DNA of 64,000 bases from Nannocystis pusilla (GCF_051105105.1 NZ_CP185339.1), one strand, 5' to 3'. Numbered from the stretch's first letter, positions 3,808 through 63,745 are shown. Numbers and translations are program-made. The notes: a model not told the origin generated them from the letters alone.

Positions 3808-3832
3808 CAGGACATGTTTCTCTGGACAGGGT
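3808..3832. repeat. GGACATGT / GGACAGG palindromic repeat pair between trpC and trpF
   Basis: The sequence caggacatgtttctctggacaggg belongs to the dispersed GGACATGTCC family, with a 14-bp half-site spacing. Confidence 0.6.
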
Positions 3833-3855
3833 GAGATAGACAGGTCGGTGCGCGC

Positions 3856-4485
3856 ATGGCGGTGAAGCTCAAGGTGTGCGGGGTGACCCGCGCCGAGGAC
3901 CTGGCGGCCTGCGTCGAGCTGGGGGTCGACGCGGTCGGGATCAACCTGTGGAGCGGGTCGCGCCGCGGGCTGTCGCTGACCGAGGCCGAGGCGCTGCTGC
4001 GCGCGGTCGATCCGCCGCGCTCGCTCGAGCGCGTGGGGGTGTTCGTCGAGCCGTCGGCCGACGAGGTCCGCCGCGCGGCCGAGGCGCTGGCCCTCGACCT
4101 CGTGCAGATCGTCGGCGCCGAAGAGGTGACGGGCTACGGGCTGCCGTACCTGTGGGTGGTCCGCGGCACGCCTGCCCTGGCCGAGCTGCTGCCGCCGACG
4201 CCCCGACCGGCCCGCGCGCTGCTCGACGCGGCGGTGCCCGGCTACGGCGGGGCGGGGCAGACGACCGACTGGGCGTGGGCGGCGGCGGCGGTGCAGCAGC
4301 TCGCGGGGCTCGAGGTGTGGCTGGCCGGCGGGATCACGCCCGCCAACGCGGCGCAGGCGATCGCGCAGGTCCGCCCGGCCGGGCTCGACGTCGCCAGCGG
4401 GACGGAGTTACCGGGGGCGCGCCGCGGGGAGAAGGACCGCGCGGCCATCGAGGCGCTGCTGGCGGCCTGTCGCGCGGCCACGTGA
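3856..4485 (+). CDS. trpF: Phosphoribosylanthranilate isomerase
   Basis: 209 aa. Starts with the LKVCGVT motif typical of PRAI, has a TIM-barrel-like composition and follows trpC. Confidence 0.85.
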   Translation: MAVKLKVCGVTRAEDLAACVELGVDAVGINLWSGSRRGLSLTEAEALLRAVDPPRSLERVGVFVEPSADEVRRAAEALALDLVQIVGAEEVTGYGLPYLWVVRGTPALAELLPPTPRPARALLDAAVPGYGGAGQTTDWAWAAAAVQQLAGLEVWLAGGITPANAAQAIAQVRPAGLDVASGTELPGARRGEKDRAAIEALLAACRAAT

Positions 4486-4491
4486 ACGATC

Positions 4492-4573
4492 GGGCATGCT
4501 CGAAAGAGCATGTCCATCGGAGCATGTTTAATGAGGCATGCCTGGACGGGCATGCCCGATCGCGCATGTCCTG
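4492..4573. repeat. Tandem array of six 14-bp units with a CATG core (RRGCATGYYYnnnn)
   Basis: CATG cores at 4495, 4509, 4523, 4537, 4551 and 4565 are exactly 14 bp apart. The array lies in the intergenic space after the trpF stop. Confidence 0.85.
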
Positions 4574-4773
4574 AGTCGTGAGGCCGCCGGGCGCCCGAGC
4601 GCCTCTCGGTGCGGCACGCGAGCGCGACGCATGAGCGGTCGACGGGCGAGCGGCTGAGCAGAAAAACAGGCGAGGAGCAGTCGGTGAGCGGGCGAGCGCG
4701 GAGGTGGCTGCCTCGCTGCGCACGGGCCCTCGCGCGCGAGACGAGCGTCGGCGGTCCGGGTTATGCTCGCCGG

Positions 4774-6028
4774 GTGACGAGCGTCTCGCGGCCGGTGGCG
4801 GCGGCGGCTCCGTGGGCGGAGTCGATGTTCTCGTTCGGGGTCACCGGCACCAACGGCAAGACGTTCGACGACGTGGATGCTGGCGGCGGCGGTGCGGGCG
4901 GCCGGGCTGTCGGTGCTGCGGGTGTCGACGCTCGGGGTCGCGTTCGACGACGAGGCGTGGCCGCGCGGCAAGCGGTTCACCGATTTCGTCGCCACGCTGG
5001 CGCGAGCGCACGAGCGCGGGGCGAGGCACGCGGTGATCGAGACGACCAGCCACGCCTTGGCGCAGGGCTACGCGCGCAGCTGGCGGTTCGACCTGGGGGT
5101 GTTCACCAACCTGTCGGTCGACCACTTCGGCACGCACGGCAGCTGGGAGCACTATCTGGCGGCCAAGGCCCAGCTGTTCATGCACCTGGGGCCCGGGCGC
5201 GCGGCGGTGCTCAACGCGGCCGACAAGCACGCGCTGTTCGTCGACCAGGCGATCCCCGCCGACGTGGAGCGGCGGTGGTTCGCGGCGCCGGGTCGTGGAC
5301 CGCGGCTGCGCGCGGCGGACCTCGAGGCCGAGACGATCGAGGTCGAGGCGACCGGGACGCGCGTGGTGCTGCGCCCGTCGCCGGCCGCGACGGCGCTCGG
5401 CGGGGCGCTCTTTACGAGGATGGTCGGCGAGGTGTTCGCCGAGAACGCGCTGGCGGCCGCGCTCGCGGGGCTCGCGGCCGGGCTGCCCGGCGAGGCGGTG
5501 GCACGCGGGCTCGCCGAGTGCCCGATCGTGCCGGGGCGCTTCGAGGTGCTGGCCCACGCGCCCGGCGGGCCGACGATCGCGGTCGACTACGCGCACTCGC
5601 CCGACGCGCTGACGCACACGTGCGCGACGGCGCGGCGGCTCGCGGGGCCGCAGGGACGGGTGCTCGTGGTGTTCGGCGCCGGCGGCAACTCGACCCCGGA
5701 GAAGCGCGCGCCGATGGGCGCGGCAGTCGGCGCGCTGGCCGACGTGGCGCTGGTGACGAGCGACAACCCGCGCGACGAGGCGCCCGAGGCGATCGCGGCG
5801 GCGGTGGTGGAAGGGCTGCAGGGCGGTCGCGCGGGCTGGTCGATCGTGCTCGACCGCGGGCAGGCGATCGCGGAGGCGGTCGCGGCGGCCGGAGCCGGCG
5901 ACGTGGTGGTGATCGCCGGCAAGGGCCACGAGGAGGGCCAGACGGCGCGCGGGCAGACGCGGCCGTTCTCCGACGTCGCTGAGGTGCGGCGGCTCGTCGG
6001 CGGTTGGGATGTGCCTGTAGGGACATGA
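4774..6028 (+). CDS. Mur ligase family protein (MurE/MurF-like central and C-terminal domains) with an apparent +1 frameshift near 4864; N-terminal domain absent
   Basis: The P-loop GVTGTNGKT (about 4840-4866) is in frame 1. The continuation MLAAAVRAAG..., DYAHSPDAL, VFGAGGNS..KRAPMG, SDNPRDE and AGKGHE are in frame 2 from 4877. Removing one base in acgttcgac restores KTSTTWMLAA. Only about 20 aa precede the P-loop, and the start (GTG 4774 or ATG 4825) is uncertain. Confidence 0.6.
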
Positions 6029-6187
6029 CCGAGAGGTCATGCCGCCGGGGCGGCTCGTGCGCGCAGGTCCTCATGGCCATCCGACCGTGGAGCTCGTCGA
6101 ACGCGGCGCAATTCGAGGGCGCCCGCGCATGTCCCCTGCGGTGGGGCGGCGGCGGTCCTTCCGCTGCAGGCGACCGCGCGCGGCGTG

Positions 6188-6215
6188 GACATGTCCTTTC
6201 GGGCATGTCCATGCG
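6188..6215. repeat. GGACATGTCC repeat pair downstream of the LDLa lipoprotein stop
   Basis: The sequence ggacatgtcctttcgggcatgtcc has two cores 14 bp apart. Confidence 0.7.
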
Positions 6216-6221: not shown

Positions 6222-6834
6222 TCAGCAGTCGGCCTCGTCGGAGCCGTCGGGGCAGTCGTCGGCCGTGTCGCACTTCCAGGTCGCCGGGATCTCGGTGCCG
6301 TTGGTGCAGACGAAGGCCTCGAGGCCACAGCCGGTGACCTCGTCGGAGTTGTCGAGGCAGTCGGGGACCTCGTCGCAGGCCCAGGTCGCGGGGATCTCCT
6401 TCTTGTCGGTGCAGGTGAAGGCCTCGAGGCCGCAGCCGCTGACCTCGTCGGAGCCGTCGGGACAGTCCGGGTTCTCGTCGCAGACCCACGCGGGGTTCTT
6501 CGAGCGCGGTGCCGTCGCTGCAGACGAAGCCGTCGCCGGTGGTGTCCGCGGTGGCCTCGGTGGTGCCCGCGGTGGCCTCGGTGGTGCTGGTCGGGGCCTC
6601 GGTGGTCGTCGGCGCGCTGGTGCCGGTGTCGGTCTCGGTGCCGTCGGTCGTCTCGCCCGCCGTGCCGGTGGTGGTCGTGTCGTCCGTGGTGCCGGCGGTG
6701 CTCGTGGTCGTGGTCGAGTCGGGGCCGATGTTGGTATCGGAGAGACCGCCGAGGTTGATCGTGCAGCCGGCTGTGGCCACGCCCTGGCTCATGAGGGCGG
6801 CGACGGACAAAAATTTGGCGAGGTCGATGTTCAT
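6222..6834 (-). CDS. Secreted lipoprotein with a Thr-rich linker and three LDL-receptor class A-like Cys repeats; frame disrupted near 6505
   Basis: Signal/lipobox MNIDLAKFLSVAALMSQGVATAGC, then a TTTTSTAGTT linker. The C-terminus, read in a second minus frame, gives GCGLEAFTCTDKKEIPATWACDEVPDCLDNSDEVTGCGLEAFVCTNGTEIPATWKCDTADDCPDGSDEADC-stop, which matches the LDLa pattern CxxxxFxCxxGxCIxxxWxCDGxxDCxDxSDE. The two parts sit in different frames. Confidence 0.6.
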
Positions 6835-8692: not shown

Positions 8693-8951
8693 TCGACGAC
8701 GGCCGCCCGAAGCGGTGCGTCGCGGACTGTCACGATGGGTTGTGGACGAAGCAGTCGTCGACGGCCGCCACATGCGGTGCGTCGCCAACTATCACGAACG
8801 AAGGGTCGGGTACGATGAAGTCGACGACGGCCGCTCATGCGGTCCGCCGCGGGCTGCCATGAGCGGTGAGTCGTGAACGGTGCAGTCGACGACGGCCCGC
8901 TCATGCGATGAGTCGCAGGCTGCGTCGAGCGATATGTTGTGGACTATGCAG
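8693..8951. repeat. Four imperfect tandem copies of a 62-66 bp unit, each beginning GTCGACGACGGCCGC
   Basis: Units at 8693, 8755, 8821 and 8886 fill the whole space between the TetR stop and the AKR start. Confidence 0.75.
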
Positions 8952-9554
8952 TCAAGAACTCGCGGCGAGCGGCGGGCCCCGGAGGGCGGCGATGGCGAAG
9001 CCGGCGACGGCCCGCAGGGCCTCGGGCGTGGCGCCCGTGCGGGCGCTGACCCGCAGGCCCTGCAGGGTGGAGAGCAGGAAGCGGCCGGCGCTGCGCTCGT
9101 CGACGTGCGCGCCGACCTCGCCGCGGTGCTTGGCCTCGGCGACCATGCGCTCGAAGGCGGCCTCGCACAGGGCGGTGGCGCTGCGGGCCAGGGTCACGAC
9201 CTCGGGGTCGCGCCCGGCCATCTCGATGATCGACTGGATGCCGAAGCAGCCGCGCGAGCGCCCCTCGGCGGTGTCTCCGGCCACGCCGAGCAGGATGTCC
9301 TCGATCGCGCCCAGCGGCGAGGCGACCGCCCGCAGCCGCTCCAGCAGGTCGGCGCCCTGACGCGCCTGGTAGCGCTCCAGCGCCGCGAGGTAGAGGCCGT
9401 GCTTGTCGCCGAAAGCGGCGTACATGCTCTGGCGCCCGATCCCCATGGCCTGGAGGAGCTGCTCGGTCGAGGTGCCGTCGTAGCCGTGCTCCCAGAACAC
9501 GGCCATGGCCCGCTCGATGGCCTCGTCTCGGTCGAACTCGCGTGGCCGGGGCAT
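8952..9554 (-). CDS. TetR/AcrR family transcriptional regulator
   Basis: The N-terminal HTH segment TSTEQLLQAMGIGRQSMYAAFGDKHGLY is typical of TetR_N. 200 aa. Confidence 0.85.
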   Translation of the reverse strand: MPRPREFDRDEAIERAMAVFWEHGYDGTSTEQLLQAMGIGRQSMYAAFGDKHGLYLAALERYQARQGADLLERLRAVASPLGAIEDILLGVAGDTAEGRSRGCFGIQSIIEMAGRDPEVVTLARSATALCEAAFERMVAEAKHRGEVGAHVDERSAGRFLLSTLQGLRVSARTGATPEALRAVAGFAIAALRGPPLAASS

Positions 9555-9740: not shown

Positions 9741-9800
9741 ACGATGATGGGCATGTCCTCGAGAACATGGTCTCATGGACATGCTCGATGGAACATGTCT
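9741..9800. repeat. CATG-core repeat array (gggcatgtcc..aacatgg..ggacatgctc..aacatgtc)
   Basis: Four or five CATG cores at about 14-bp spacing between the TetR gene and the next upstream gene. Confidence 0.7.
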
Positions 9801-9851
9801 TGAAGACCGCGCCGTCGAGGCGAGAGCGGAAATCGAGCGGCGGCGGCCCGC

Positions 9852-11220: not shown

Positions 11221-11481
11221 CGGCCGGACCGGAGGCGCACGGACGAGGCCGGGAAGGCGCTAGCGGCGATGCTGGCCGCTGACGGCGGGGCGGCGAGGTC
11301 GGTCGAACCTGGTGCGAGGAGCTGCGGAGCGGTCGCCGCGGGCGGCGATGCCAGGCTCGGTTGCGCTGGCGAGGCGCGGGGCCTCGCTGCGATGACTGTC
11401 GTCGCTCGCTGCGCGAAGAAAAAGCGCGACCCCCTTTCAGAAGGAGGTCGCGCTTCGTCGCAGGCGAGGCTCGAGGTCGGC

Positions 11482-13348
<1,867 letters not shown>

Positions 13349-14703: not shown

Positions 14704-14710
14704 CGCGCGG

Positions 14711-14790
14711 GCGTTCGGGGCATGTCGCGGAGGACATGTCCCGACGGGACGGCGCGTCGGGACATGTCACGTGGGACATGTCCCGCGCGC
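14711..14790. repeat. 14-bp-phased GGACATGTCC array (5 units, one degenerate)
   Basis: CATG cores at 14721, 14735, (14749 degenerate), 14763 and 14777, between the repeat-protein stop and the rlmE stop. Confidence 0.85.
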
Positions 14791-14794
14791 CCTG

Positions 14795-15469: not shown

Positions 15470-15500
15470 CCAAGGACATGTCCCGAAGGACAGGGCCTTC
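15470..15500. repeat. GGACATGTCC / GGACAGGG repeat pair
   Basis: The sequence aaggacatgtcccgaaggacagggcc lies between rlmE and rplC. Confidence 0.7.
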
Positions 15501-18696: not shown

Positions 18697-18720
18697 GGCT
18701 GGCCCCCGAGAGGGCGTGAG

Positions 18721-18860
18721 GGACATGTCAGATCGGACATGTCGGTGCGGACATGTCGGGGATGGGCATGGGCGCAGCGGCCCGATCGGTCTGCGCGTGA
18801 AGGAGTGCGGGGGCGCTGCTTAAAAGACATGTCGCCAGGGGCATGGCCCGGGCGACATGT
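18721..18860. repeat. Two GGACATGTC arrays (14-bp phase) between convergent genes
   Basis: Cores at 18724, 18738, 18752 and 18767. A second cluster at 18808-18860 reads aaaagacatgtcgccaggggcatggcccgggcgacatgtctc. Confidence 0.85.
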
Positions 18861-18885
18861 CTCTCAGGGCAGCTCGTGCGGGCGC

Positions 18886-21704: not shown

Positions 21705-21775
21705 AGGGACATGTTCTTGCGGGCATGTTCATGAGGGCATGGCCTCAGGGGCATGGCGCATGGGACATGTCCGAT
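21705..21775. repeat. 14-bp-phased GGGCATG/GGACATG array (5 units)
   Basis: Cores at 21710, 21724, 21738, 21752 and 21766. Confidence 0.85.
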
Positions 21776-25505: not shown

Positions 25506-25794
25506 CAACTCGGTGAACTCGGCCCCCGGCAGCACGCTCGCCAAGAATACGTGAGGCGGGCAGGTTGTTCGAAGCCAGCGAACAGGAACGAGGCCGATCG
25601 CGCGCGGGTCCTCGCGGCCGCGACGCCGAGCGGCTGGCGGGCCCGCCGCCCCCGTCCCGCCCGCACGGAACCACGCTCGGCGAGGTCGCGGCCCCCATCG
25701 GCTGCAGACGGCGAGGTCGATGGCGTCGGGCGCGACGAGATCGGTGGCCGCAGGTCGCGGAGCAGTCGGATGGCCTTGGCGACATGCTCGAAGA

Positions 25795-25830
25795 GATATG
25801 TGCATGAGGACATGTCGCCGAGGGCATGTA
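25795..25830. repeat. GCATG / GGACATGTCG / GGGCATGT repeat cluster
   Basis: The sequence atgtgcatgaggacatgtcgccgagggcatgta lies in the divergent intergenic region upstream of the kinase. Confidence 0.7.
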
Positions 25831-26122
25831 TCGAAGGGCGAACCCGTCAGGGGGAGCGGCGGGCGCGGCACAAGGGAGCGGCGCGGGCTGCTCAGTGGCG
25901 GCCCGGGGCCTGAGCGCCGGTGCGAGGCGGGCCGAAGCGGGGGCGCGAGCCGGGGATGAAGTGGGAGGATGTCGGGGCGGAGGCGCCGGCGGGTCGTCCG
26001 CCGGTGGTGAGGCGGCAGGGGCGGACTGGCACGAGCGGAGAGCCTCGATAGCCTTGGCCCAGGCGCTGGCGACGTCGCGGGGCGAGGCGCGAGCGCGAGG
26101 TGGCCGGGGAGGAGGCCGGGCC

Positions 26123-33769: not shown

Positions 33770-33832
33770 GATGTCCCCGGCGACATGTCGCCGGGGACAT
33801 GTCTGCTAGGACATGGCCGGAAGGGCATGCTC
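33770..33832. repeat. 14-bp-phased GGACATGTC array (5 units)
   Basis: Cores at 33770 (atgt), 33784, 33798, 33812 and 33826, immediately after the pmbA stop. Confidence 0.85.
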
Positions 33833-33869
33833 CGAGGGACCGGTGACGGGCGGCCGCCGATGAGGTACT

Positions 33870-34939: not shown

Positions 34940-34975
34940 GGATTCGAGGATGTCCTTCGGGACAGGTCAGTCGCG
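34940..34975. repeat. GGATGTCC / GGACAGGTC repeat pair
   Basis: The sequence gaggatgtccttcgggacaggtcag. A near-identical copy (gaagatgtcctgaaggacaggtgag) lies at 35590-35616 on the other side of the SnoaL-like gene. Confidence 0.7.
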
Positions 34976-35371: not shown

Positions 35372-35813
35372 GCTCGAGGCATTGAGCGGGCCTGGGGACA
35401 GGGCAAGCCGCCGCTGGCTCGCACGCCGGCGAAAGCGGCGGTCGGGGCCCTGGGAGCGCGTTTCGAGCGGTGAGCGCAAGAGGCGCGACCGGCCCGGCGA
35501 GCGCGGCGCGGCGGCCTGGGGGCGACCTCGGGCGCCGCGGACAGCTGGCCGCCACCGGCCCTGGCTGGCAGGGCGGTCGTCGAGAATTTTGAAGATGTCC
35601 TGAAGGACAGGTGAGCTCGGTTGCACTCGAGGTGCCGCTGTGAGGGCCCGGACGGCAAACTCGTACGCGCTCGCATGGGTCACGCACGGCGAGGGTGCTC
35701 GCGGCGCGTTCCGATGCTTCGCCGCGAGGGGCTCGGGAGCTGGAGCGCCGCGCGCAGACCCAGCGGACGAGCGCGTCGGTCGACGGCGAGCTTGCGGGTC
35801 TACGGCTTCGAGC

Positions 35814-37212
35814 TCAGCGCGGCTCGTCGTCGGGGCAGACGAAGCGCTCGAAGCGGCGGGCGAGCACCGAGTCGGGCAGGCGCGCGGCCAGGCGCTGGGC
35901 GGCGGTCGCGGCGTCGGCGGGGCGGCCTTGCAGGCACAGGAGCTCGACCGCGGCGGCCTCGCGGGCGTCGACGAGGGCGCCGCGCGGGAACTGGCGCGCG
36001 TGGGCGTCGAGGAGCTGGGCGGCGCCTGCGGGGTCGCGGGCATCGAGGCGGGCGCGGGCGCGGTCGAGGAGGCCGACCTCGAGGGCGAGGTCGTCGCGGG
36101 CGGGCAGGCGCGTGGATGTCTCTCGGGACAGCAGCTGATCGTAGGCCGGGCGCGTGACCCGGCCGGCGGGCGCGGGTGCGGCTGTCCTCGGGGACAGGCC
36201 GGCCGCCGGGCCCGGCGACAGGGGGGCCGTCGCGCGGGTCCACACGCCGGCGACCTGCGCGCGGAGGTGGGCGAACGAGACCGGGGAGACGGGGGACCGC
36301 AGCGCAGTGGCGGGCGCTTCGGTGGGCGAGATCGAAGCTGTCTCTCGGGACATGTCGTCGGACGAAGGCGTGGCTGTCTCTCGGGACATGTCGTCGGGCG
36401 AAGGCTTGGCTGTCTCTCGGGACATGTCCCCGCTGGAACGAGAGCCAGCTGTCTTTGCGGACAGGTCCTCGATCTGCGCGGCGGCGGCCCGGCCCGGGGC
36501 CTGGCGGGGGGCGACCGCGACGACGGCGGTGGCGCCGGCGACGACGAGGGTGGTCATGACGCCGGCGCGCGCGGTGGTCCAGGCGGCGGCGACGGTGGCG
36601 AGCTTGCCGTGGCCGAAGAGCGGGACCATCACGGCCCAGGTGCGCGAGGCGGCGCCTTCCGGGGGCTCGTCGCGGCGGCGGCTCTCGGCGACCTCGACGG
36701 CCAGCAGCTCGGGGCTGGCGGCCAGCTCGAGCAGGCGGGCGCGCGCGAGGCGGAGCCGCGAGTAGACGGTGTTGAGCGGCAGCTCGAGCTCGGCGGCGAT
36801 CTCGGGGCCGCTCATCCCGAGCAGCTCGGTCAGCTCCCACACCTCGCGGGTGCCGCGAGGCAGGCCGGCGAGCAGGCGCTCGAGCAGGCGGGCAGCGTCG
36901 TGGCGCTCCTGCGGGGCCTCGCCGACGTGGCCGGTGAGGTCGCCGAGGGCGGCGATCCGGCGGGTCCGGCGGGCGACGCCGCGGTGCCAGTGGGAGGCGA
37001 CGCGGCGGGTGACGCCGTACAGCCAGGCGCGCGCCGAGACCTGGTAGTGGACCTGGTCGAAGCGGCGGTAGGCGGTGAGGAAGACGTCCTGGACCACGTC
37101 GTCGCGGGCGGCCGCGGGGACGCCGAAGTACTTCGCGGCCGACCACACGAATTGGAACTTCTCGGTCGTAGATGGCGCGAAAGCGCGCTTCTCGGTCGGT
37201 GGCGAGCAGCAT
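35814..37212 (-). CDS. ECF sigma factor continuing in-frame into an anti-sigma (single-TM) domain; frameshift near 37155
   Basis: Sigma region 2 (DVVQDVFLTAYRRFDQ) and region 4 (VWELTELLGMSGPEIAAELELPLNTVYSRLRLAR) are followed by TM LATVAAAWTTARAGVMTTLVVAGATAVVAVA and an anti-sigma-like C-terminal domain. The N-terminus MLLATDREARFRAIYDREVP is in the adjacent frame. An extra base in the ccaattcg homopolymer explains the shift. Confidence 0.65.
36330..36470. repeat. GGACATGTC-family repeat array with 36-bp period, in-frame within the anti-sigma periplasmic linker
   Basis: Cores at 36351, 36387, 36423 and 36459. It translates as DMSRETAKPSPD / DMSRETATPSSD / DMSRETASISPT. Degenerate copies lie at 36100-36180. 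Confidence 0.75.
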
Positions 37213-38454: not shown

Positions 38455-38515
38455 GATGAATGTCTGCGAGGACATGTCGTGAAAGACATGTCCTCGCAGC
38501 CATGCATAAGCCAGG
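38455..38515. repeat. GGACATGTC repeat cluster
   Basis: The sequence gaatgtctgcgaggacatgtcgtgaaagacatgtcctcgcagccatgcat. Confidence 0.75.
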
Positions 38516-44552: not shown

Positions 44553-44608
44553 CGGGGCAGGTTGTCGGGGACAGGTACGCGGGGACAGGTACGCGGGGAC
44601 AGGTACGA
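44553..44608. repeat. Four tandem 14-bp units GGGGACAGGTACGC (a variant of the family)
   Basis: The sequence ggggcaggttgtc|ggggacaggtacgc|ggggacaggtacgc|ggggacaggtacga lies between gcvT and gcvH. Confidence 0.8.
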
Positions 44609-49924: not shown

Positions 49925-50015
49925 TCCCCGGACATGTCGCAAACGCCAGGCAGGCTCAGCCGTGCTCGCGGGGGGCGCGCGCCTGGGGGATGTCCTCGGG
50001 GACATGCCCCCTAAG
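49925..50015. repeat. Duplicated GGACATGTC + GCCAGGC(A)GGCTCAGCC module
   Basis: The sequence ggacatgtcgcaaacgccaggcaggctcagcc ... ggatgtcctcggggacatgccccctaagccaggctcagcc lies between pcm and nadE. Confidence 0.7.
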
Positions 50016-52002: not shown

Positions 52003-52023
52003 CAATGTCTCCGGGGACAGGGT

Positions 52024-52040
<17 letters not shown>
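52003..52040. repeat. GGGGACAGGG / GGACATGTCC repeat pair
   Basis: The sequence caatgtctccggggacagggtctaaaggacatgtcctg lies in the 22-bp gap between the Prs-like stop and the nadE start. Confidence 0.75.
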
Positions 52041-52967
<927 letters not shown>

Positions 52968-52971
<4 letters not shown>

Positions 52972-54921
52972 GCGGCGGGGGAAGAGTACCCCTCGGCGAG
53001 CGCGTTGGCGACCTCGGTATAGGCGTAATCGCTGACGCGTTCGTCGATGCGCATGCGCAGCAGCGCCTTGCTGCGGCAGGTGGCCGCGAAGAAGAACGCG
53101 CGATCGTCGGCGCACGCGCGCGCGAGCGCCGGATCGGCGGTCCAGCGGTCCCACTCGCGCTGGCAGATCCGCCGCACCGCGGGCCACAGGACGTTCGGGC
53201 CGGGGCCGCCGGCGTCGTCGACCCAACCGATCACGGCCGCGAGGTGGGCGTGCACGAGGGTGTGCAGCAGCTTGCCCTGGGCCTCGGCGAGGTCGGAGGT
53301 CAAGGTGAAGGAGTCGGGCGCGAGCGCGGGGGCGTGGCCGGCCGCGGCCAGCCGCCCGCGGTGGAGCCGCACGCCGCCGAGGTCGCGGACGACGAAGCCG
53401 CAGGGGCGCCCGGCGTGGACGAGGAGGGTGTTTTGCAGGTGCGCCTCGAGGGCGACGCCGTGGGCGGTGAGCAGGCGCAGGGCCGCGGGGACCAGGAGGT
53501 CGAGGTAATCGTGGAAGAAGGCCGCGAGGCGCGCGCGCGGATCGCCGGGGTAGTCGGCGGCGAGCTCGCGCAGCAAGAGGTCGCCGCCGGGCCGGCGCTC
53601 GCCGAGGGCGGCGCAGACGACGAGCTGCGGGGTGCGCGATGGGACATGTTCGATAGGGAATGTCGCGCGGGACAGGTCCCCGGGGGCATGTTGCAAGGGG
53701 AATGTCTCGGAGGACAGGTCGGAGACGCGGGCGGAGGGGCGCGAGGGCGGCGAGGCGGTCGGACCGGTGAGCGGGCCGGCGAGCGAATTCGGGGCGGTCC
53801 GCGCGGCGCGGGACGGGTCCCCCGGGGCAGGTGCGGCGAGGGTGGCGAAGAGGTCCGCGTGGAGGTCGCGGGCGAGGGCGGCGGGGTCGGGGCGGAGGAC
53901 GACGCCGAGCTGGCCGGCGCTGGGGCCGTGGCGGGGGTGCAGGCCGGCGGCGGCGAGGTCGGGCTGGACCTGCAGGCCGCGGCGGGTGAGCGGATCGGCG
54001 GCCTGGATCGCGGCCAGGAGGGCGGCGATCGGCGGGCCGTTGTGCACCGAGGCGGGCGAGACCTGGCGCCGCGCGCTGGTGGTGTGGATGTCGACGGCCA
54101 GCTTGAGGTGCAGCGCGGGGGCGACGAGGGCGACGGTGCGCAGGCTGAGCAGGGCGCGCGCGTGCAGCGGGGGCAGGCCGGCCGGGCGGACCTCGCGGCC
54201 CCACAGCGGGCCGAGCAGGCGCGGGAGGCGGCGCAGCTGCAGGGCGTGGACGGGCAGGCGGACGAGGCCCGGCGGCGGGGCCGGGAACAGGGCGCGCGCG
54301 AGCTCGGCGTAGACGGTCGGCTCGGCCAGCTGGGCGTGTTCGGCGGCGACGTTCGACGGCGTGGACGGCCGCCTGGGCCAGCAGGTCGGGGCCATGGCGC
54401 AGGTTCTCCCAGGCGCGCAGGCCGAGCCGGGTCTTGCTCATCGGGTGCCACGGGTGGCCGTCGACGACCAGGTTCTCGGGGTCGAGCGGGGCGGGCCACG
54501 GCTGGCCTTTAGAGCATGTCCGATGGCGCAGGTCGGCGGCGACGCGGGCGAGGGCGAGGTTCCAGCGGCTGTCGGCGAGCTCGCCTGCGATCCGGGCGCG
54601 GATGGCGGGGGCGAGCGCGGGCAAGAGGCGCGGGAGGAGGCCGGGGAGGTCGGGGAGGTCGGCGCCGTCGAGGTCGGCGGCGTGCAGCTCGAAGGCCCGG
54701 CGCCGGCGCAGCGGGAGGCTCAAGGAACATGTGCGAAGGGACATGTCCTGGAGGTCGAATTCGACCAGCCGCTCGCGCGCGCAGGCGAGGACGAGGCGGG
54801 CGCCGATCGCCTGGGTCGCGGCCCGCCAGTGGGCGGCGAGCTCGGCGGGCGCCGGCCGGGCGCCGAACGCGACAGGCACGGCCCGGGCGGCGAAGGCGAG
54901 GAAGCGGTCGCGCTCGGACAC
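52968..54921 (-). CDS. IucA/IucC family (NRPS-independent siderophore synthetase-like) protein with a frameshift near 54330 and in-frame palindromic-repeat insertions
   Basis: N-terminal block [17 protein letters not shown] is in one frame. The mid-domain [24 protein letters not shown], the catalytic region [19 protein letters not shown] and the FhuF-like C-terminus are in the adjacent frame. The segment between the SLRT-like and H-Q-N blocks is roughly 75 aa longer than in characterised members, and it contains the 84-bp repeat array. The start is uncertain (GTG about 54921). Confidence 0.6.
53645..53728. repeat. Six 14-bp-phased repeat units (84 bp = 28 codons), in-frame inside the IucA/IucC ORF
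   Basis: Cores at 53645, 53659, 53673, 53687, 53701 and 53715. It translates to [28 protein letters not shown]. Further copies inside the same ORF lie at 54510-54535 and 54720-54750. Confidence 0.8.
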
Positions 54922-57003: not shown

Positions 57004-57083
57004 GACGCGGGCGCGGGGTGCGGCGGCAGGACGACGCGGACGGCGCGAGCTCGTCGCGGGCGCGGTGGCCTGGTCGTCGGGGC

Positions 57084-59408
57084 ATGTTCTCTCGGACATG
57101 GCCGATCGCTACTGTCTTCTTGGGCATGTTCCTGCAGACAGGCGCGGCGCGGGCGGGCGAGGCGATCGTGGTCCGCTTCGGCTCGGGGGCGAAGAAGGGC
57201 GGCTTCGACGTGACCGCGCACGCGCTGGCCGAGGCGGTCCAGGGCGAGGGGCGGGTGACGATCGCGCCGGAGGCGACCCGGGGCTCGTGCGAGAACGTCC
57301 ACAAGCTGCTGTCGGGCGAGCTCGACGCGGCGCTGGTGCAGTACGACGTGGCGGCGGAGGCGTTCAAGGCCGGGCTGGCCGACGCGGACGCGGGCGACAG
57401 CGCGATCCCGAAGGGCGGGTGGATGTGCAAGCTGTCGCCCGAGGAGGCCGACAAGGCCGAGCTGCGGGTGATCGCGGCGGTGTCCGACGCGGCGGTCCAC
57501 GTGCTGGTGCGCCGGCCGGTGCGCCTCGACGACTTCGCCGAGATCGGCCGCGAGCCGCTGTTCATGGGCAAGGACGGCTCGGGCAGCTACGAGACGGCCA
57601 AGGTGATCCTCGGCGCGGCCGGCCACACCGCGGAGCAACTGCCGCTGTTCACGGGCACGGCCGACGAGGCGCTGGCGGCGATGAGCCGGCGCGAGCTGCT
57701 GACGATGCTGCGCACCACCGAGCCCGGGCACGCGGAGATCCGCGACGTGCTGGCGTCGGGCCTGGCGACCCTGAACCCGCTGCCCGAGGGGGTGCTAAAC
57801 CGCCTGATCGACGGCTACCCGTACTACCGGATCTGCCCGATCGAGACCGGGACCTATCCTGGCCTCGAGTACAGCATGCCGACGGTGTGCGTGAGCTCGG
57901 TGGTGCTGGTGGCGACGCCGCGCGAGCGGGTCGAAGACGAGAGCTTCTTGGCCGACCGTCGGCTGGCGGTCGAGGCGATGATCCAGGGGCTCAAGAAGCT
58001 CGCGCGCGACAAGCAGTACGCGAGCCTCAAGATCCGCGTGGAGTGGCGCGGGTTCGCCGAGCGCGAGCCGATCCCGCTCCACCCGGTGGCCGAGCTGCAC
58101 GAGACCAGCGAGCGCCGGCAGGCGTGGCTGCAGGGCGGGGCGTTCGCGGCGGCGCTGGGGTTGGCGCTGTACCTGGTGCGCCGGGCGCTGCGGCGGCGGC
58201 GGGTCCCGGGCGCGGGGATCGAGAGCCAGCTGTCGAACCCGCTGGTGCCGTTCGCCGCGTTCGCGTGCGTGGTGACGCTGTCGACGTTCATCGTCTGGTC
58301 TCTGGAACATGACTCGAACGCCAGGCTCAGGACGCTCAACGACTCGTTCTGGGAGATGAACACGTTCGCCACCGGCAACTTCACGACCGAGACGCTGAAG
58401 ACGCCGACGGCGCGGCTGGTCGGGGCGGCGGCGACGATCCTCGGGCTCGGCCTGCTCGCGTGGTTCACCGCGACGCTGACCAACATCTTCGCGCAGGAGC
58501 AGACGCGGCTGTGGCGGCGGCTCAACCGGCACCTGGTGGTGCTGAACTTCCGCGAGGACATGCTGCCGCTGATCCGGCTGCTGCGCAGCCCGGGGCCGAC
58601 CCGGCACCGGCCGCTGCACGTGGTGGTGTCCGACGCGCTGCCGCGGCGGGTGCGGCTGCAGCTGGCGCGCGTGAAGGCGCTGACGATCCACCACTCGAAC
58701 CCGGAGGTGCCGGAGGACCTGGCGGGGCTGCGGCTGCCGCGGGCGTCGCGGGTGATCGTGCTCGGCGACGGCGACGGGTCGGGGGCCAGCTACGATCCGC
58801 TGCGGATCGCCCGCGCGGTCCATCAGGCGTGCGCCCGCGACCCGCTCGGCGGCGGCCAGCGAGCGCGGACGCTCGGGGTGGCGGCGACGTCGGTGGAGAT
58901 CGCCCGCACCGCGCCGGCGCTGCCGGTGACTCTGGTCGAGACGTCGGAGGCGGAGCGCGAGGAGGTGTTCTCGCCGTTCGCGGCCTGGCTGGTGCCGGTC
59001 GATTGCCAGGCGCTGGCGCACCGCTGGCTGGTGATGGCGTGCCGCGACCGCGCGTTCGCGGAGCTGTTCAACCGCGTGGTGGCGTTCGCCGACGACAACG
59101 CCGAGGTCTACACGGCGCCGGCACCGACCTGGCTCATCGGACAGCCGTGGCGCAAGGTCCGGCGCGCGTTGCTCGAGGTGCAGGGCCGCGGCGGCGCGGT
59201 GCCGCTGGGGCTGTATCGCGCCGCCGATCCGGGCGGCAAGGCGCCGGCGGGCGGGACGTCGCACGCGGAGCTGCGGCGGCGGCTGATCGTCAACCCGCGG
59301 CCGGACGAGACGCTGGTGCCGGGCGACCTGATCGTGGCGCTGTGCGAGGACGAGGCCGACCTGGTGCGGATCGTGGCCGAGAGCCGCAAGGTCGCGGCGC
59401 CGGGCTGA
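57084..59408 (+). CDS. Fusion protein: periplasmic TAXI-type solute-binding domain + 2-TM pore domain + tandem RCK/Castor-Pollux-like cytosolic domains
   Basis: Signal MFSRTWPIATVFLGMFLQTGAARA. TAXI-like PBP2 motifs (GS.EN..L..GELDAALVQYD, GKDGSGSYETAKVILGAAG). TM1, a pore-helix-like segment FWEMNTFATGNFTTETL and TM2. Then RCK-like segments (HLVVLNFRED..., ASRVIVLGDGD). The ATG and signal-peptide coding are supplied by a GGGCATGTTC/GGACATGG repeat array (57078-57140). Confidence 0.65.
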   Translation: MFSRTWPIATVFLGMFLQTGAARAGEAIVVRFGSGAKKGGFDVTAHALAEAVQGEGRVTIAPEATRGSCENVHKLLSGELDAALVQYDVAAEAFKAGLADADAGDSAIPKGGWMCKLSPEEADKAELRVIAAVSDAAVHVLVRRPVRLDDFAEIGREPLFMGKDGSGSYETAKVILGAAGHTAEQLPLFTGTADEALAAMSRRELLTMLRTTEPGHAEIRDVLASGLATLNPLPEGVLNRLIDGYPYYRICPIETGTYPGLEYSMPTVCVSSVVLVATPRERVEDESFLADRRLAVEAMIQGLKKLARDKQYASLKIRVEWRGFAEREPIPLHPVAELHETSERRQAWLQGGAFAAALGLALYLVRRALRRRRVPGAGIESQLSNPLVPFAAFACVVTLSTFIVWSLEHDSNARLRTLNDSFWEMNTFATGNFTTETLKTPTARLVGAAATILGLGLLAWFTATLTNIFAQEQTRLWRRLNRHLVVLNFREDMLPLIRLLRSPGPTRHRPLHVVVSDALPRRVRLQLARVKALTIHHSNPEVPEDLAGLRLPRASRVIVLGDGDGSGASYDPLRIARAVHQACARDPLGGGQRARTLGVAATSVEIARTAPALPVTLVETSEAEREEVFSPFAAWLVPVDCQALAHRWLVMACRDRAFAELFNRVVAFADDNAEVYTAPAPTWLIGQPWRKVRRALLEVQGRGGAVPLGLYRAADPGGKAPAGGTSHAELRRRLIVNPRPDETLVPGDLIVALCEDEADLVRIVAESRKVAAPG

Positions 59409-59669: not shown

Positions 59670-60869
59670 ATGCTGCCCTCTCGCGTCGTCCTCGCGTGGT
59701 CTTCCGTGCTCGTCGTCGGCTGCTATTCGGGCGTCGCGGAGGTGACCGAGAGCATCGGCGCGCCGGAGACCGCGAGTGAGGCGACGAGCACCGGCGCGGG
59801 CGCGGCGAGCAGCGAACCGGAGACGAGCGATGCGAGCGCGCCGGGCACCGGCGAGGCGTCGACTTCGGGACCGCCGACGAGCACGAGCGGCGCCGGGACG
59901 ACGACCACGGGGCCGGACGAGGTGTCCTCGGGGCCAGGTCCGACCGGCGACGGGACCTCCGGCGCGGCTTCGGCGACCACCGGCGAGCTCACCACCGGCG
60001 AGCTCACCACCGGCGAGCTCACCACCGGCGACATCACCACCACCGGCGAGCCGATCGATCCGGCGGCGGAGGTGTGCGCGCGCTGGACGGCGGACCGTAC
60101 GGACATGTCTGAAGGGACATGGAGCGGGGCGGTCGCCGGCTGTCAGGCGGGGGACACGGGCGCGCCGGGCCGCGACAACGCGCTCAGGCTGATCAACTTG
60201 TACCGCTGGCTGGCCGGGCTGCCGGCGGTCGGGCACGACCCCGGGCTCGGCGCCAAGGCGCAGCAGTGCGCGCTGATGATGCACGCCAACGGGCAGCTGT
60301 CGCACGACCCGCCGATGCAGTGGGACTGTTACACCGCCGACGGGGCGCAGGCGGCGAAGAACAGCAACATCTCGTCGACGCCGGGCGTGGTAGCGGTCGA
60401 CCTCTACATGGTCGACCCCGGCAACGCGACGACCTTCGGCCACCGGCGGTGGATCCTCTCGAACAAGCTCGGGCCGGTCGGGCTCGGGTCGACGGCCGTC
60501 AACTCGTGCATGTGGGTGATCGGCGGGCAGGGCGGCGGCGACGCGGCGTGGACGGCCTGGCCGCCGCCCGGGGTGGTGCCGATCGCCGCGATCCACGTGC
60601 CCGAGGTGCCGTGGTCCGACGTCGACGAGACGGGCTGGACGATCCAGAGCGACGCGATCGACCTCGGCGCGGCGCAGGTCAAGATCAGCGAGGGCGGGGT
60701 CGACCGGCCGGTGAAGACGACGGCGCTCATGGGCGGGTTCGGCTCGGCCAGCGCGATCGCCATGACGCCGCAGGGCTGGACCTCGGAGGCCGGCAAGACC
60801 TACACGGTGGCGGTCAGCGGGGTGCCGCAGCCGTTCAGCTACGACGTGCAGGTGGTCGCCTGCCCATGA
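59670..60869 (+). CDS. CAP (CRISP/Ag5/PR-1, SCP) domain lipoprotein with a Ser/Thr/Gly-rich linker
   Basis: Lipobox LVVGCYSG. (GELTT)x3 tandem peptide repeat. The CAP core LINLYRWLAGLPAV...AQQCALMMHANGQLSHDPP..WDCYT..GAQAAKNSNI..HRRWIL. A GGACATGTCTGAAGGGACATGG repeat pair at 60100-60125 is in-frame (TDMSEGTWS), and the stop codon lies inside the next repeat array. Confidence 0.75.
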   Translation: MLPSRVVLAWSSVLVVGCYSGVAEVTESIGAPETASEATSTGAGAASSEPETSDASAPGTGEASTSGPPTSTSGAGTTTTGPDEVSSGPGPTGDGTSGAASATTGELTTGELTTGELTTGDITTTGEPIDPAAEVCARWTADRTDMSEGTWSGAVAGCQAGDTGAPGRDNALRLINLYRWLAGLPAVGHDPGLGAKAQQCALMMHANGQLSHDPPMQWDCYTADGAQAAKNSNISSTPGVVAVDLYMVDPGNATTFGHRRWILSNKLGPVGLGSTAVNSCMWVIGGQGGGDAAWTAWPPPGVVPIAAIHVPEVPWSDVDETGWTIQSDAIDLGAAQVKISEGGVDRPVKTTALMGGFGSASAIAMTPQGWTSEAGKTYTVAVSGVPQPFSYDVQVVACP

Positions 60870-60873
60870 GGGA

Positions 60874-60920
60874 CATGTCCGTACGGGCATGGCCGAGCGG
60901 GCATGTCCCGACGGGCATGG
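60874..60920. repeat. 14-bp-phased GGACATGTCC / GGGCATGG array (4 units)
   Basis: Cores at 60874, 60888, 60902 and 60916, starting inside the CAP gene stop codon (cccaTGAgggacatgtcc). Confidence 0.85.
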
Positions 60921-60924
60921 CCGA

Positions 60925-61383: not shown

Positions 61384-61443
61384 AAGCGATCGCCGGCGGG
61401 CGATCCACCGGCGTGGGGTCGGGCCAGTGCTATAGTGACGGCG

Positions 61444-62562
61444 ATGCGAGCGGTCCGCGGTGCGGTCGGGGTGTTGTGGCTCGGGCTCGGTGCGTGCCCG
61501 TCGCCGGCCACGCGCGGCGAGAGCGACGCGGGGACGACGAGTGGTTCGGCGGAGGCGGGCGCGCCCGCCGAGACGAGCAGCTCGAGCAGCTCGAGCGAAA
61601 CGACGGCGGCGCCGACGACCACGGGGCCGGGGCCCGACGTCGGGATCGCGTCGCGCTGCGGTCACGACAGCCCGGAGGCGCTGATGGACTGCGTCGACCC
61701 GGCTCGCTGGGCCGAGGACGTCGCGTTCATGGCCCAGTCGCGGCCGCCGGGATCGATCCACTGGCAGAAGGTGCAGGATCGCTGCGCGGCGGCGCTCGAG
61801 CAGGCGGGCTTCGTGGTGCAGCGCCAGGACTACGGCACGGGGATCAACGTGATCGGGACGCGCGAGGGCACCGCGGCGGCGTCCGAGGTGGTGCTGCTGA
61901 CGGCCCACTACGATCACGTCAGCGGCTGCCCCGGCGCCGACGACAACGCGAGCGGGGTGGCCGGGGCGCTCGAGGTGGCGCGCGTGCTCGGGCAGGCGAC
62001 GCTGCCGCGCACGCTGATGGTGGCCTGCTGGGACGAGGAGGAGCTGGGGCTGCGCGGCTCGCGGGCGTTCGCGCAGACGTTCACGGGCGCGAAGCTGGCG
62101 GTGGCGTTCAACTTCGACATGATCGGCTACGCGAGCGCGGCGGAGCACTCGCAGATCTTCCCGGGGCCGCTGGCGGAGCGGTTCCCCGGGCTGGCCGACG
62201 AGCTGACCGCCAACAAGGGGCGCGCCGACTTCATCGCCGTGGTCGCCGACGCGTCGGCCGAGGCGTTCGCGCGCGAGCTGGAGGCGCAGGCGGAGGGCCT
62301 CGGCCGGCTGACGGGGGTGATGACGCTGACGGACGCGGAGAAGCTCGACGACGACGCGTTCGGGGTGCTGAGCACGTCGGACCACCGCAGCTTCTGGGAG
62401 CGCGGGCTGCCGGCGCTGCACGTGTTCGACACCGGGGTGTTCCGCAACCCGGCGTATCACTGCGCGGTCGGGCTCGACACCCCGGACAAGCTCGATCACG
62501 CGTTCGCTACCGACGTGCTCAAGGCGACGACGGCGGCGGTCGCGGCGGCGGCCGGGCTGTAG
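61444..62562 (+). CDS. M28 family Zn aminopeptidase lipoprotein
   Basis: Lipobox LGLGAC and a Ser-rich linker. M28 motifs LLTAHYDHV, DDNASGVAGALEVAR, CWDEEELGLRGS and FNFDMIG. Confidence 0.8.
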   Translation: MRAVRGAVGVLWLGLGACPSPATRGESDAGTTSGSAEAGAPAETSSSSSSSETTAAPTTTGPGPDVGIASRCGHDSPEALMDCVDPARWAEDVAFMAQSRPPGSIHWQKVQDRCAAALEQAGFVVQRQDYGTGINVIGTREGTAAASEVVLLTAHYDHVSGCPGADDNASGVAGALEVARVLGQATLPRTLMVACWDEEELGLRGSRAFAQTFTGAKLAVAFNFDMIGYASAAEHSQIFPGPLAERFPGLADELTANKGRADFIAVVADASAEAFARELEAQAEGLGRLTGVMTLTDAEKLDDDAFGVLSTSDHRSFWERGLPALHVFDTGVFRNPAYHCAVGLDTPDKLDHAFATDVLKATTAAVAAAAGL

Positions 62563-62571
62563 CCGCGCGGC

Positions 62572-63538
62572 TCAGCTCCACTGCAGGTCGAGGACGAAGC
62601 GCCGCCACTCGCGCTCGAAGCGGGGCATGTCGCGGTGGCCGACGAGCTTCTGCAGGGTGCCGTAGCCGCCGGGATCGAGGACGGCGCCGGCGACGAAGGC
62701 GTGATAGTAGTCGCGCAGGCGACCCTGCTCCTGTAAATAATAGCAGAGGTAGCGGGCCTGGGCGTAATTGAGGCCGGAGCGCGCGCCGTAGAATTTCGTC
62801 GGAGTCGGTGGCGCACAGCTCGGCGAACGAGCGCAGGCGCCGGGCCCGGATGGCGGCCTGCAGCTGCGGCAGGCGCCAGTTGGGGTAGCCGACGATCCGG
62901 CCGCCGTGCTCGCCGCACTGCTCGTAGAGCGAGGCGAGGCCCTCGTTGAACCAGGCGGGGCAGGCGGGGAAGTTGGCGGCCATGAACGGATGGACGATCT
63001 CGTGGACGAGGGTGCCGCCGCCGGTGCCGATGTTCATGATCAGGGCGGCGTGCCGCGGCGAGTAATAGCCATAGGGGGTGTCGGGCTCCTCGCCGAACAA
63101 CTCGCGGGTGTTGCGGCCGTAGCTGGCACGGTCGGCGAACAAATACACGTCGATGATGCGCGCCGGGTCGCGGGCGAAGTAGTCCTGCTTGAGCCGCAGC
63201 ACCGACCAGTGGATCGTGCGATCGGCCCGCCGCTGGACGTCGGCGGGCGGTTCGTCGCCGATGACCACGAAGGGCGGCTCGACGAGGACGGTGAAGCCGC
63301 GGCCGACGTGGCGCTCGCGCAATGCGTCGGCGCGGGCGTCGAGGGCGGCGCGAGTGACGAGGGGCGGGCCGAGGGCCGAATTCGCGACCGGAGGCGGCGG
63401 CGGACCCGGCGAGGGGAGCTCGGGCTCGGGCTCGGGCGCGAGCGCGCGGCGGGGAGGGGGCGGCGCGGAGGTCGGGCGATCGCCGCAAGCCCAGGTGCCG
63501 GCGGCGACGAGCCCGAGGGCGAAATCTCGGCGGTGCAT
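62572..63538 (-). CDS. DUF1570-like (peptidase MA superfamily, HExxH) secreted lipoprotein with a frameshift near 62800
   Basis: Lipobox GTWACGD. HEIVHPFM...FNEGLASLYE zincin-like motif. The C-terminus FYGARSGLNYAQARYLCYYLQEQGRLRDYYHAF...FVLDLQWS is in the adjacent frame. An extra base in the gaatttc run explains the shift. Confidence 0.6.
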
Positions 63539-63599
63539 GCAGCGGTAGAGCACGCACGCGCCGGGCCGATGGGTCTGGTGCGACCGACGAGGTCGCAAG

Positions 63600-63745
63600 A
63601 GAGGATGGAGCCAGCGGTTCGATCTGCGCCTGGGGACGGGTCGATGCGGACGATGCCGCGCGAGGATCGATCTGTTCGTGGGGACAGGGCCGGCTCGACG
63701 CAAATGATGCCGCGTGAAGCTGTCCCGAGAGACATGTGATTCGCC
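63600..63745. repeat. Degenerate GGGGACAGGG / GGACATGT repeats plus a duplicated GATGCCGCG motif
   Basis: The sequence ggggacgggtcgatgcggacgatgccgcg ... ggggacagggcc ... aatgatgccgcgtgaagctgtcccgagagacatgtga. Confidence 0.5.

Follow-up and report, generated by a model that had tools for sequence, protein, structure and literature searches.

What are the short, strictly phased palindromic arrays that recur along a stretch of Nannocystis pusilla DNA, and what keeps them in place? We analyzed 64,000 nt from this species (GCF_051105105.1, NZ_CP185339.1), a stretch called here the window, in which an earlier sequence-only reading had noticed a dispersed tandem repeat. The repeat unit consists of a 10-bp perfect palindrome, GGACATGTCC, and a freely variable 4-nt spacer, with the consensus nnGGACATGTCCnn. 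A four-unit array is written as (GGACATGTCCNNNN)4. These units form a family of interspersed palindromic repeat arrays that behaves in the genome like repetitive extragenic palindromes (REPs) and bacterial interspersed mosaic elements (BIMEs). The family has its own architecture and is a new relative of REP/BIME, not a member.

The palindrome GGACATGTCC occurs 10 times in the window; 100 shuffles that preserve dinucleotides contain it 0.06 times on average and at most once. It is the most frequent palindromic 10-mer there, though 4 of its 10 bases are A or T. Over all pairs of CATG cores in the window, 35 pairs lie 14 bp apart, 20 lie 28 bp apart, 15 lie 42 bp apart and 5 lie 56 bp apart, and every other distance up to 99 bp is represented by 0–5 pairs. 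Arrays were called with a position weight matrix built from phased units, the matches were chained, and the reversed sequence served as control. The window contained 24 arrays with at least two units and 12 with at least three; the reversed sequence contained 3 and 0, respectively. Two of the 24 (1848–1862 and 43873–43887) are chance-like matches within genes. The dispersed 14-bp-phased family is thus real and enriched beyond k-mer expectation. The earlier estimate of about 25 loci was right, and all coordinate series given with it were recovered (4495–4565, 14721–14777, 18724–18767, 21710–21766, 33784–33826, 53645–53715 and 60874–60916), as was the CAGG-variant series, at 44566–44607.

The phase had been described as holding in most arrays. 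It is confirmed and is even stricter than that, and it is present elsewhere in Nannocystis. In ~0.94 Mb of Nannocystis DNA, strong units were spaced by 14 bp 310 times, by 13 bp once and by 15 bp never, and the gap from CATGTCC to GGACATG was exactly 4 nt in 74 of 75 cases. The spacer 4-mers are diverse and slightly A/T-enriched. Special tetraloops were rejected as an account of the spacers, neither GNRA nor UUCG being dominant among them. Arrays with at least three units have a mean G+C content of 57%, compared with 72% for the whole window. By far the commonest core variant is CAGG/CCTG (15% of units); the CCTG core prefers the first unit and the CAGG core the last. Terminal units conserve their inner half somewhat better than their outer half. 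In other Nannocystis DNA, 194, 57, 30, 15, 9 and 2 arrays had 2, 3, 4, 5, 6 and 7 units, respectively, and one had 21, a geometric distribution. Two other candidate explanations of the motif were rejected. CATG contains ATG on both strands and several single matches lie at start codons, but most single matches are inside genes and chance-like, and ~16 are expected from shuffles at the score used. A restriction or methylation footprint was rejected since CATG is not avoided outside the arrays (observed/expected 1.19).

To define the taxonomic range, we scanned 185,579 species genomes for GGACATGTCNNNNNGGACATGTC and obtained at least 120 loci. About 110 of the 120 matches listed came from Nannocystis (exedens, pusilla, punicea, bainbridge, radixulma, sp. 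RBIL2 and metagenome-assembled genomes, MAGs) or from a Nannocystaceae MAG. Nine listed matches from other phyla were lone two-unit hairpins with no family around them. The family is present in at least eight independently assembled Nannocystis genomes. The window is 93–94% identical to Nannocystis sp. RBIL2 over 33129–41001, and its 42–64 kb portion is ~94.5% identical to N. pusilla Na p29 and 87–95% identical to N. exedens. Loci progressively further from Nannocystis carried 6, 1 and 0 arrays per ~21 kb: a syntenic metagenome contig of a deeper lineage (L126) had 6 in 21.5 kb, a Nannocystaceae MAG locus (L124) had 1, and a Myxococcales MAG locus (L125, ~21 kb) had none. Among palindromic 8- and 10-mers of Nannocystaceae and Myxococcales loci, a small sample, no similar family with another motif was prominent. 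A phage origin was rejected, with only 2 matches in 2.9 million viral contigs. The family is therefore specific to Nannocystis and its close relatives. Rfam covariance models gave no match at gathering score across the whole window. The NAD synthase encoded in the window had no exact counterpart among recorded proteins. A full-text literature search found no description of the family and nothing on Nannocystis or myxobacterial interspersed repeats; GGACATGTCC itself appeared in eukaryotic papers only, chiefly on p53 response elements. The family is apparently undescribed so far.

We compared the positions of arrays with those of genes. Genes were called by a codon-usage model trained on long open reading frames (ORFs) with high GC3 and were checked by Pfam hits and by the NCBI gene annotation of loci in N. 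pusilla and N. exedens. Occupancy was computed after dropping the intergenic regions that had brought loci into the sample. The share of intergenic regions with an array was 46% for convergent, 23% for co-directional and 11% for divergent gene pairs, roughly the 2:1:0 ratio that a feature linked to gene 3′ ends would be expected to show. Arrays had been reported after stop codons and in all three kinds of gap; the first, the convergent and the co-directional contexts stand, whereas the divergent one is rare. In co-directional gaps, the median distance of an array is 47 nt from the stop codon upstream of it (at most 9 nt in one quarter) and 166 nt from the start codon that follows, and the NCBI gene calls of N. 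exedens and N. pusilla show the same placement. Some convergent gaps are wholly filled by arrays (e.g. 21705–21774 and 60869–60924), and arrays also separate probably co-transcribed genes (trpC and trpF, prs and nadE, gcvT and gcvH). In addition to the 24 arrays of the window, 308 non-ascertained arrays were counted in ~0.87 Mb of other Nannocystis DNA. By extrapolation, we estimate thousands of arrays per 11–13 Mb genome (~4,000–5,000 loci, or ~1 array per 2.7 kb).

Arrays score negative for coding and sit outside ORFs with coding signal. However, a purely intergenic placement needs correcting, as at least three arrays (53640–53723, 54723–54750 and 60099–60126) are within coding sequence. The first of these encodes an insert in a siderophore synthetase. 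In a protein alignment, the length of this insert differs from one Nannocystis ortholog to the next, and the proteins of a Nannocystaceae MAG, Enhygromyxa and Pseudenhygromyxa lack it. Its conserved residues are the translated cores and its variable residues the spacers, so the constraint on the cores appears to act at the nucleic-acid level even in a gene. Because 14 is 2 modulo 3, each unit is read in a different frame from the one before, so that all three frames occur and a GHV/DMS/TCP peptide signature results. Among 19 gene-internal arrays that span at least three units and have same-frame coding signal on both sides, 13 consist of exactly three units (42 bp) and one consists of six.

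To follow the arrays between species, we compared eight orthologous locus pairs and a three-species block. Arrays were kept at orthologous sites in all compared cases, in genomes 77–95% identical (the window, N. pusilla, N. exedens and RBIL2 among them), and no empty site was found among ~30 orthologous arrays. Cores had an identity of 0.86 (~0.91 when one misaligned 21-unit array was omitted) and spacers one of 0.65; other intergenic DNA stood at 0.80 and third codon positions at 0.88. Position by position, identity ranged from 0.86 to 0.94 within the core, with 0.94 at the centre, and fell to 0.51–0.57 at the spacer ends. For example, the RBIL2 ortholog of the array at 33779–33834 retains the cores and has altered spacers. 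Neighbouring spacers in one array are no more similar than random pairs, which indicates that most arrays are old. The four A/T positions of the core persist despite the 72% G+C of the genome. Since old arrays keep one genome-wide core consensus and an indel-free phase, we infer purifying selection on core sequence and spacing, which would imply a trans-acting reader of GGACA/TGTCC. Frequent turnover of units could mimic part of this conservation signal.

Copy number does change. The largest difference seen was at L021 3342–3630, where N. pusilla has 21 units with an internal 42-bp higher-order repeat and N. punicea (L106) has ~6. The three identical units at 44566–44607 mark a recent duplication. 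At L098 4305–5014, N. radixulma carries one gene more (201 aa), which is a tandem paralog of the adjacent gene and has an array on both sides; RBIL2 (L027, ~3620) has one array at this place. This suggests that the gene was duplicated or deleted by unequal recombination between arrays.

Because every unit is self-complementary, two neighbours can form a hairpin (10-bp stem, 4-nt loop) from either strand, as RNA or as single-stranded DNA. Two units thus give a 24-bp stem-loop, and a single unit is just 10 bp. Longer arrays form nested hairpins. Some arrays make a single long nested hairpin, with pairing of flanks or spacers as well (e.g. 14704–14794 and 38460–38510). Arrays with CATG cores fold at z = −3 to −7.8, and 0 or 1 of 200 shuffles folds equally well. 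Complementarity between spacers and flanks shows a small excess at lag 2 (1.22 versus 1.06, standard deviation 0.04). Structure alone does not explain the family, given CAGG arrays that do not fold, almost no compensation, little spacer complementarity and no parity in unit number.

To look for a signal of transcription, we oriented arrays by their upstream gene and stratified substitutions by replication-strand skew. The ratio of A>G plus C>T changes to their mirror changes on the sense strand was 112:55 for a G-rich sense strand and 92:88 for a C-rich one; from replication bias alone, ~97:70 and 75:105 are predicted. A>G and C>T on the sense strand preserve G-U pairs in RNA. The excess fits selection on RNA pairing or transcription-coupled mutation and would in either case mean that the arrays are transcribed, so the substitution pattern hints at transcription. 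On the plus strand of the window, G exceeds C in each 4-kb bin (skew 0.06–0.22). Array units on the G-rich strand deviate mainly by T>G and C>G, a replication-strand mutation bias seen within the repeats themselves.

How does the family compare with known repeats? REPs are extragenic palindromes, often clustered, that lie downstream of genes in convergent or co-directional gaps and occasionally in genes, and they are lineage-specific and long-lived (PMC3733652, PMC2817692). The REP palindrome carries a conserved GTAG or CGTC tetranucleotide at one end (PMC3733652). Like the REP/BIME families of Enterobacteria, Pseudomonas and Stenotrophomonas, the Nannocystis arrays are high-copy and extragenic and occur in regularly spaced clusters. 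They share the placement downstream of ORFs, rarely between divergent genes and occasionally inside genes, are lineage-specific, vertically inherited and long-lived, and are predicted to fold in transcripts. In contrast to the 20–40 bp imperfect palindrome of REPs, that of the Nannocystis unit is perfect and 10 bp long, units follow one another strictly every 14 bp with a free 4-nt spacer, the GTAG/CGTC tag, a defining feature of REPs, is absent from nnGGACATGTCCnn, and flanks and spacers are not conserved. Orientation has no meaning for self-complementary units, and the estimated density is higher than in typical REP families. The sequence-only reading had set REPs aside; this holds for the architecture and not for the genomic behaviour. 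No Y1 transposase (RAYT) was found among the window proteins scanned, a scan that included no search aimed at a RAYT-like partner.

The other suggestion of that reading, a MITE-like element (miniature inverted-repeat transposable element), did not stand. The arrays lack terminal inverted repeats and target-site duplications beyond the units and show no presence/absence polymorphism among N. pusilla, N. exedens and RBIL2; MITEs are 70–300 bp, whereas these arrays consist only of 14-bp units in variable number. CRISPR was correctly set aside: its repeats are 24–48 bp long and alternate with unique spacers of about that length at one locus or a few, with cas genes, whereas a 10-bp repeat and a 4-nt spacer recur here at ~24 loci in 64 kb. 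In being tolerated in genes as in-frame insertions and translated as extra peptide segments, the arrays share a behaviour, not membership, with Rickettsia palindromic elements (RPEs). RPEs are single elements of 100–150 bp, whereas the present family forms 14-bp phased arrays that are mostly extragenic. HIP1 (GCGATCGC) of cyanobacteria is a very short perfect palindrome over-represented in one lineage, its copies scattered singly and largely in genes; the cyanobacterial STRR repeats are dispersed short tandem arrays of heptamers that are not palindromic. The Nannocystis family resembles HIP1 in its hugely over-represented short palindrome and STRR in its dispersed tandem arrays, and differs from both in combining a palindrome with a 4-nt phase and a 3′-end bias. 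The mycobacterial TRIT motif and the paired DNA uptake sequences of Neisseria are sequence-conserved, lineage-specific hairpins found after genes and between convergent genes without classical U-tracts. The Nannocystis hairpins are likewise conserved, without U-tracts and found in these places; they differ from those single hairpins in forming phased arrays of variable length, and their terminator role is putative. Finally, ribbon-helix-helix operators such as the MetJ met-boxes (AGACGTCT, 2–5 copies) and the omega-protein heptads are arrays with one dimer per unit, periods of 7–8 bp and a handful of promoters per genome. They provide a known model for protein reading of short (half-)palindromic units set head to tail at fixed phase, as in Nannocystis; here, however, thousands of loci lie after genes and the reader protein is putative.

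We tentatively prefer the reading, which we place a little short of an even chance, that the arrays act as hairpins in transcripts and form an orientation-independent punctuation of 3′ ends, read or maintained by a putative sequence-specific factor. The arrays would be transcribed at message ends, and their hairpins would, in the manner of REPs, block read-through and 3′ exonucleases, including in the gaps within an operon. A putative lineage-specific trans-acting factor would read the GGACA/TGTCC half-sites, so that all loci are held to one consensus rather than drifting by compensatory change. Slippage between units may make arrays grow and shrink, and gene-internal arrays would survive only if the added length preserves the frame, as three units (42 bp) do. 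In favour of this reading are the enrichment and phase, the taxonomic restriction, the 3′-end bias, the conservation of positions and cores, the folding of CATG-core arrays, the sense-strand substitution pattern, the copy-number dynamics, the in-frame arrays inside genes and the fewness of classical terminator-like sites (9 versus 4.4 expected in 20 kb).

Several results weigh against this preference. A T-run followed 14 of 143 arrays, compared with 12 of 143 in the upstream control; the arrays thus have the hairpin of a canonical intrinsic terminator and not its U-tract, and are not terminators of that kind. Direct CAGG/CCTG-core arrays (44566–44607 and 53640–53723) keep the phase and do not fold (z = −0.5 and −0.9). 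Pairs of units as the true hairpin-forming element were rejected, with no surplus of even unit numbers. Compensatory evolution between adjacent units, within units and between spacers gave small excesses only: deviating positions were Watson-Crick paired with the neighbouring unit in 8.8% of cases versus 6.6% after permutation, and covariation within units was absent. The sense-strand bias could be due to transcription-coupled mutation and not to selection, and the 3′-end bias could result merely from selective removal of arrays from promoter regions. Transcription of the arrays and 3′ ends at them are things we infer only, and the cognate factor is putative.

A more far-reaching proposal is that of a genome-wide punctuation system, in which a putative Nannocystis-specific protein reads phased GGACATGTCC units at the ends of about half of the transcription units, either as a duplex filament (three units per four turns) or as hairpins, and the arrays are kept by purifying selection throughout the genus. 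We regard it as doubtful in this complete form, yet worth stating. Such a system could consist, for example, of factor-dependent bidirectional terminators, or of topoisomerase-recruiting sites between convergent genes.

The main rival to transcript hairpins, unlikely in our judgement, is that the arrays are duplex-DNA binding sites for a putative Nannocystis-specific protein at gene ends. A dimer would occupy each palindrome or each TGTCC-N4-GGACA junction (a 5-N4-5 dyad, like the FNR type), and the 14-bp step would rotate neighbouring dimers by ~120 degrees and build a cooperative helical filament. The task of the filament may be roadblock termination, or recruitment of topoisomerase or condensin to places where positive supercoils accumulate through transcription; gyrase reportedly binds BIME-2. 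Binding sites of this kind would account for one global core consensus essentially without compensatory change, and for spacers free in sequence yet fixed in length (310 pairs at 14 bp, 1 at 13 and 0 at 15). The phase and the GGACA half-site are also retained by arrays incapable of forming hairpins, the inner halves of terminal units are the better conserved, unit number has no parity preference, and enrichment is highest between convergent gene pairs. The tandem half-site binding array proposed from the sequence therefore stays live, with cores at one consensus without compensatory change; its binding protein, however, is purely putative. Operator-type arrays also offer no precedent for ~4,000–5,000 loci per genome located after genes and not at promoters. 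The extreme hairpin potential, the sense-strand excess of G-U-preserving changes, which points to an effect at the RNA level, and the small lag-2 complementarity excess in spacers and flanks likewise weigh against duplex sites.

We consider it rather improbable that the arrays are a selfish or neutral satellite without host function, generated by hairpin-promoted replication slippage or by a putative RAYT-like enzyme. Such a satellite would persist only where it is harmless, downstream of genes or as frame-preserving 42-bp blocks in protein linkers. Geometric array sizes, the wide variation of ortholog copy number, recently duplicated units with identical spacers (44566–44607 and the 21-unit array in L021) and the depletion of arrays from divergent, promoter-containing regions all agree with it. 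So do the preponderance of three units in gene-internal arrays (13 of 19), a survivorship pattern known for Rickettsia palindromic elements, and the tandem gene duplication or deletion bounded by arrays (L027 versus L098). However, most arrays are old and their cores are nevertheless at consensus and more conserved than other intergenic DNA, whereas the spacers evolve faster; the 14-bp phase survived without indels; no empty sites were found among ~30 orthologous arrays; and neutral decay at 72% G+C should have erased the A/T positions of the core. A neutral or selfish satellite accounts for the dynamics and the distribution, not for the core conservation. An origin by chance, composition, coding repeats or assembly artefact, which the few two-unit calls in genes (1848–1862 and 43873–43887) and many chance-like single matches might suggest, is excluded for practical purposes by the 10-mer count (10 versus 0.06 in shuffles), the reversed control (0 versus 12 arrays of at least three units), the same family in at least eight independent Nannocystis assemblies and the negative coding scores of arrays outside ORFs with coding signal.

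The arrays of the window and their surroundings are given in Table 1.

Table 1. Positions, composition and gene context of the arrays in the 64,000-nt window
Position	Array	Context	Remarks
3794..3849	~4 units (2 degenerate)	Co-directional gap trpC (2940-3746, +) / trpF (3856-4485, +), within trp cluster	
4490..4573	6 units	Starts 5 nt past trpF stop codon	RNA fold −50.2 kcal/mol, z = −5.1
6019..6046	2 units	Overlaps stop codon of Mur-ligase-like gene (4877-6028, +)	
6185..6212	2 units	Convergent intergenic region	
9747..9802	4 units	Between two minus-strand genes	Fold z = −3.3
14716..14785	5 units, middle unit degenerate	Ends 10 nt before stop codon of FtsJ-like methyltransferase gene (14795-15415, −)	Single long hairpin, −69.1 kcal/mol, z = −7.8 (folded segment 14704-14794)
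15472..15499	2 units	Between FtsJ-like and ribosomal protein L3-like genes, both minus strand	
18719..18775	4 units, last unit offset 15 bp	Past stop codon of gene 17893-18696 (+)	
18823..18864	3 units	Same convergent intergenic region as 18719..18775	
21705..21774	5 units	Fills entire convergent gap, stop codons at 21695 (+) and 21775 (−)	Fold z = −4.6
25778..25833	4 units	Upstream of hybrid histidine kinase gene (gene start uncertain)	Only divergent-region candidate of the window
33779..33834	4 units	Past stop codon of PmbA/TldD gene (32411-33760, +)	
34944..34971	2 units, GATG and CAGG cores	Convergent intergenic region	
35589..35616	2 units	Between two minus-strand genes	
36337..36470	36-bp higher-order repeat, each copy with GGGACATGTC, then one GGACAGGTCC unit		3 copies; 6 in RBIL2 (L080)
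38468..38495	2 units, flanks lengthen hairpin to 15 bp	Between two minus-strand genes	−30.8 kcal/mol, z = −6.9 (segment 38460-38510)
44566..44607	3 identical 14-bp units, CAGG core (CGGGGACAGGTACG)	Gap gcvH (43169-44542, −) / gcvT (44622-45743, −)	Units 100% matching, not palindromic, no fold (z = −0.5)
49984..50011	2 units	Just past stop codon of NAD synthase gene (50022-52001, −)	Conserved in N. pusilla and N. exedens
52013..52040	2 units	22-nt gap prs (52024-52971, −) / nadE, overlapping prs stop codon	
53640..53723	6 units, 84 bp = 28 codons	In-frame in IucA/IucC-family siderophore synthetase ORF, between IucA_IucC and FhuF domains	
54723..54750	2 units	N-terminal coding part of IucA/IucC-family siderophore synthetase gene	
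57078..57133	4 units, 1 degenerate	Between two plus-strand genes, reaching start of NMT1-like gene	
60099..60126	2 units	Inside CAP-domain gene	Conserved in three species; position agrees with L122 gene calls
60869..60924	4 units	Fills convergent gap CAP-domain gene / DUF1579 gene	5 units in N. exedens, starting 1 nt past annotated stop codon

The trp genes are in the order trpE-trpG-trpD-trpC-trpF (32–4485). No array interrupts the first four, which overlap or are tightly packed; arrays lie in the gap between trpC and trpF and after trpF. The 36-bp repeat at 36337–36470 is within a long ORF downstream of an extracytoplasmic function (ECF) sigma-factor domain and may be translated, because 36 bp preserves the reading frame.

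The IucA/IucC-family gene is split over two frames at 54340–54400 (ORFs 52968–54395 and upstream, minus strand), with the N-terminal ~160 residues (SERDRFLAF...) in the other frame. In N. pusilla, N. exedens and N. punicea the orthologous gene is uninterrupted and encodes 601–635 aa. The split gene is either a pseudogene or the result of a 1-nt assembly error. The typA/bipA gene on the minus strand is also split: the GTPase domain and domain 2 are in ORF 10916–13402, and domains III and V with the BipA C-terminal domain are in ORF 11482–12384, which is in a different frame. That two conserved genes are broken within 64 kb points to indel errors in the assembly from which the sequence was taken.

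The window also has tandem repeats of other kinds. A 63-bp repeat (3.2 copies, 99% identity) is at 54935–55134, in the gap between the TauE-like and siderophore synthetase genes, where N. pusilla has three extra genes. A 15-bp in-frame repeat (ACCACCGGCGAGCTC; 4.4 copies, 96% identity) is at 59976–60041, inside the CAP-domain protein gene. Repeats at 6233–6488 (105 bp), 8746–8953 (65–66 bp) and 14298–14499 (71 bp), with 2.3–2.7 copies of 76–84% identity, are unrelated to the 14-bp family.

For work on Nannocystis, a natural-product producer, the arrays are a hazard for assembly, polymerase chain reaction and gene calling. They also provide a genus marker and variable-number loci for strain typing, and they add translated GHV/DMS/TCP segments to proteins. 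With its perfect 10-bp palindrome, a spacer fixed at 4 nt and no orientation, the family is an extreme case of the REP/BIME type and offers a clean system for separating structural from sequence-specific constraints on such repeats. Classical terminators are scarce in bacteria of very high G+C content, myxobacteria and actinobacteria among them, and it is poorly understood how these organisms end and insulate their transcription units. In one genus, a single easily recognisable family, its cores apparently under selection, separates about half of the convergent gene pairs sampled, which makes this long-standing question of gene ends directly testable.

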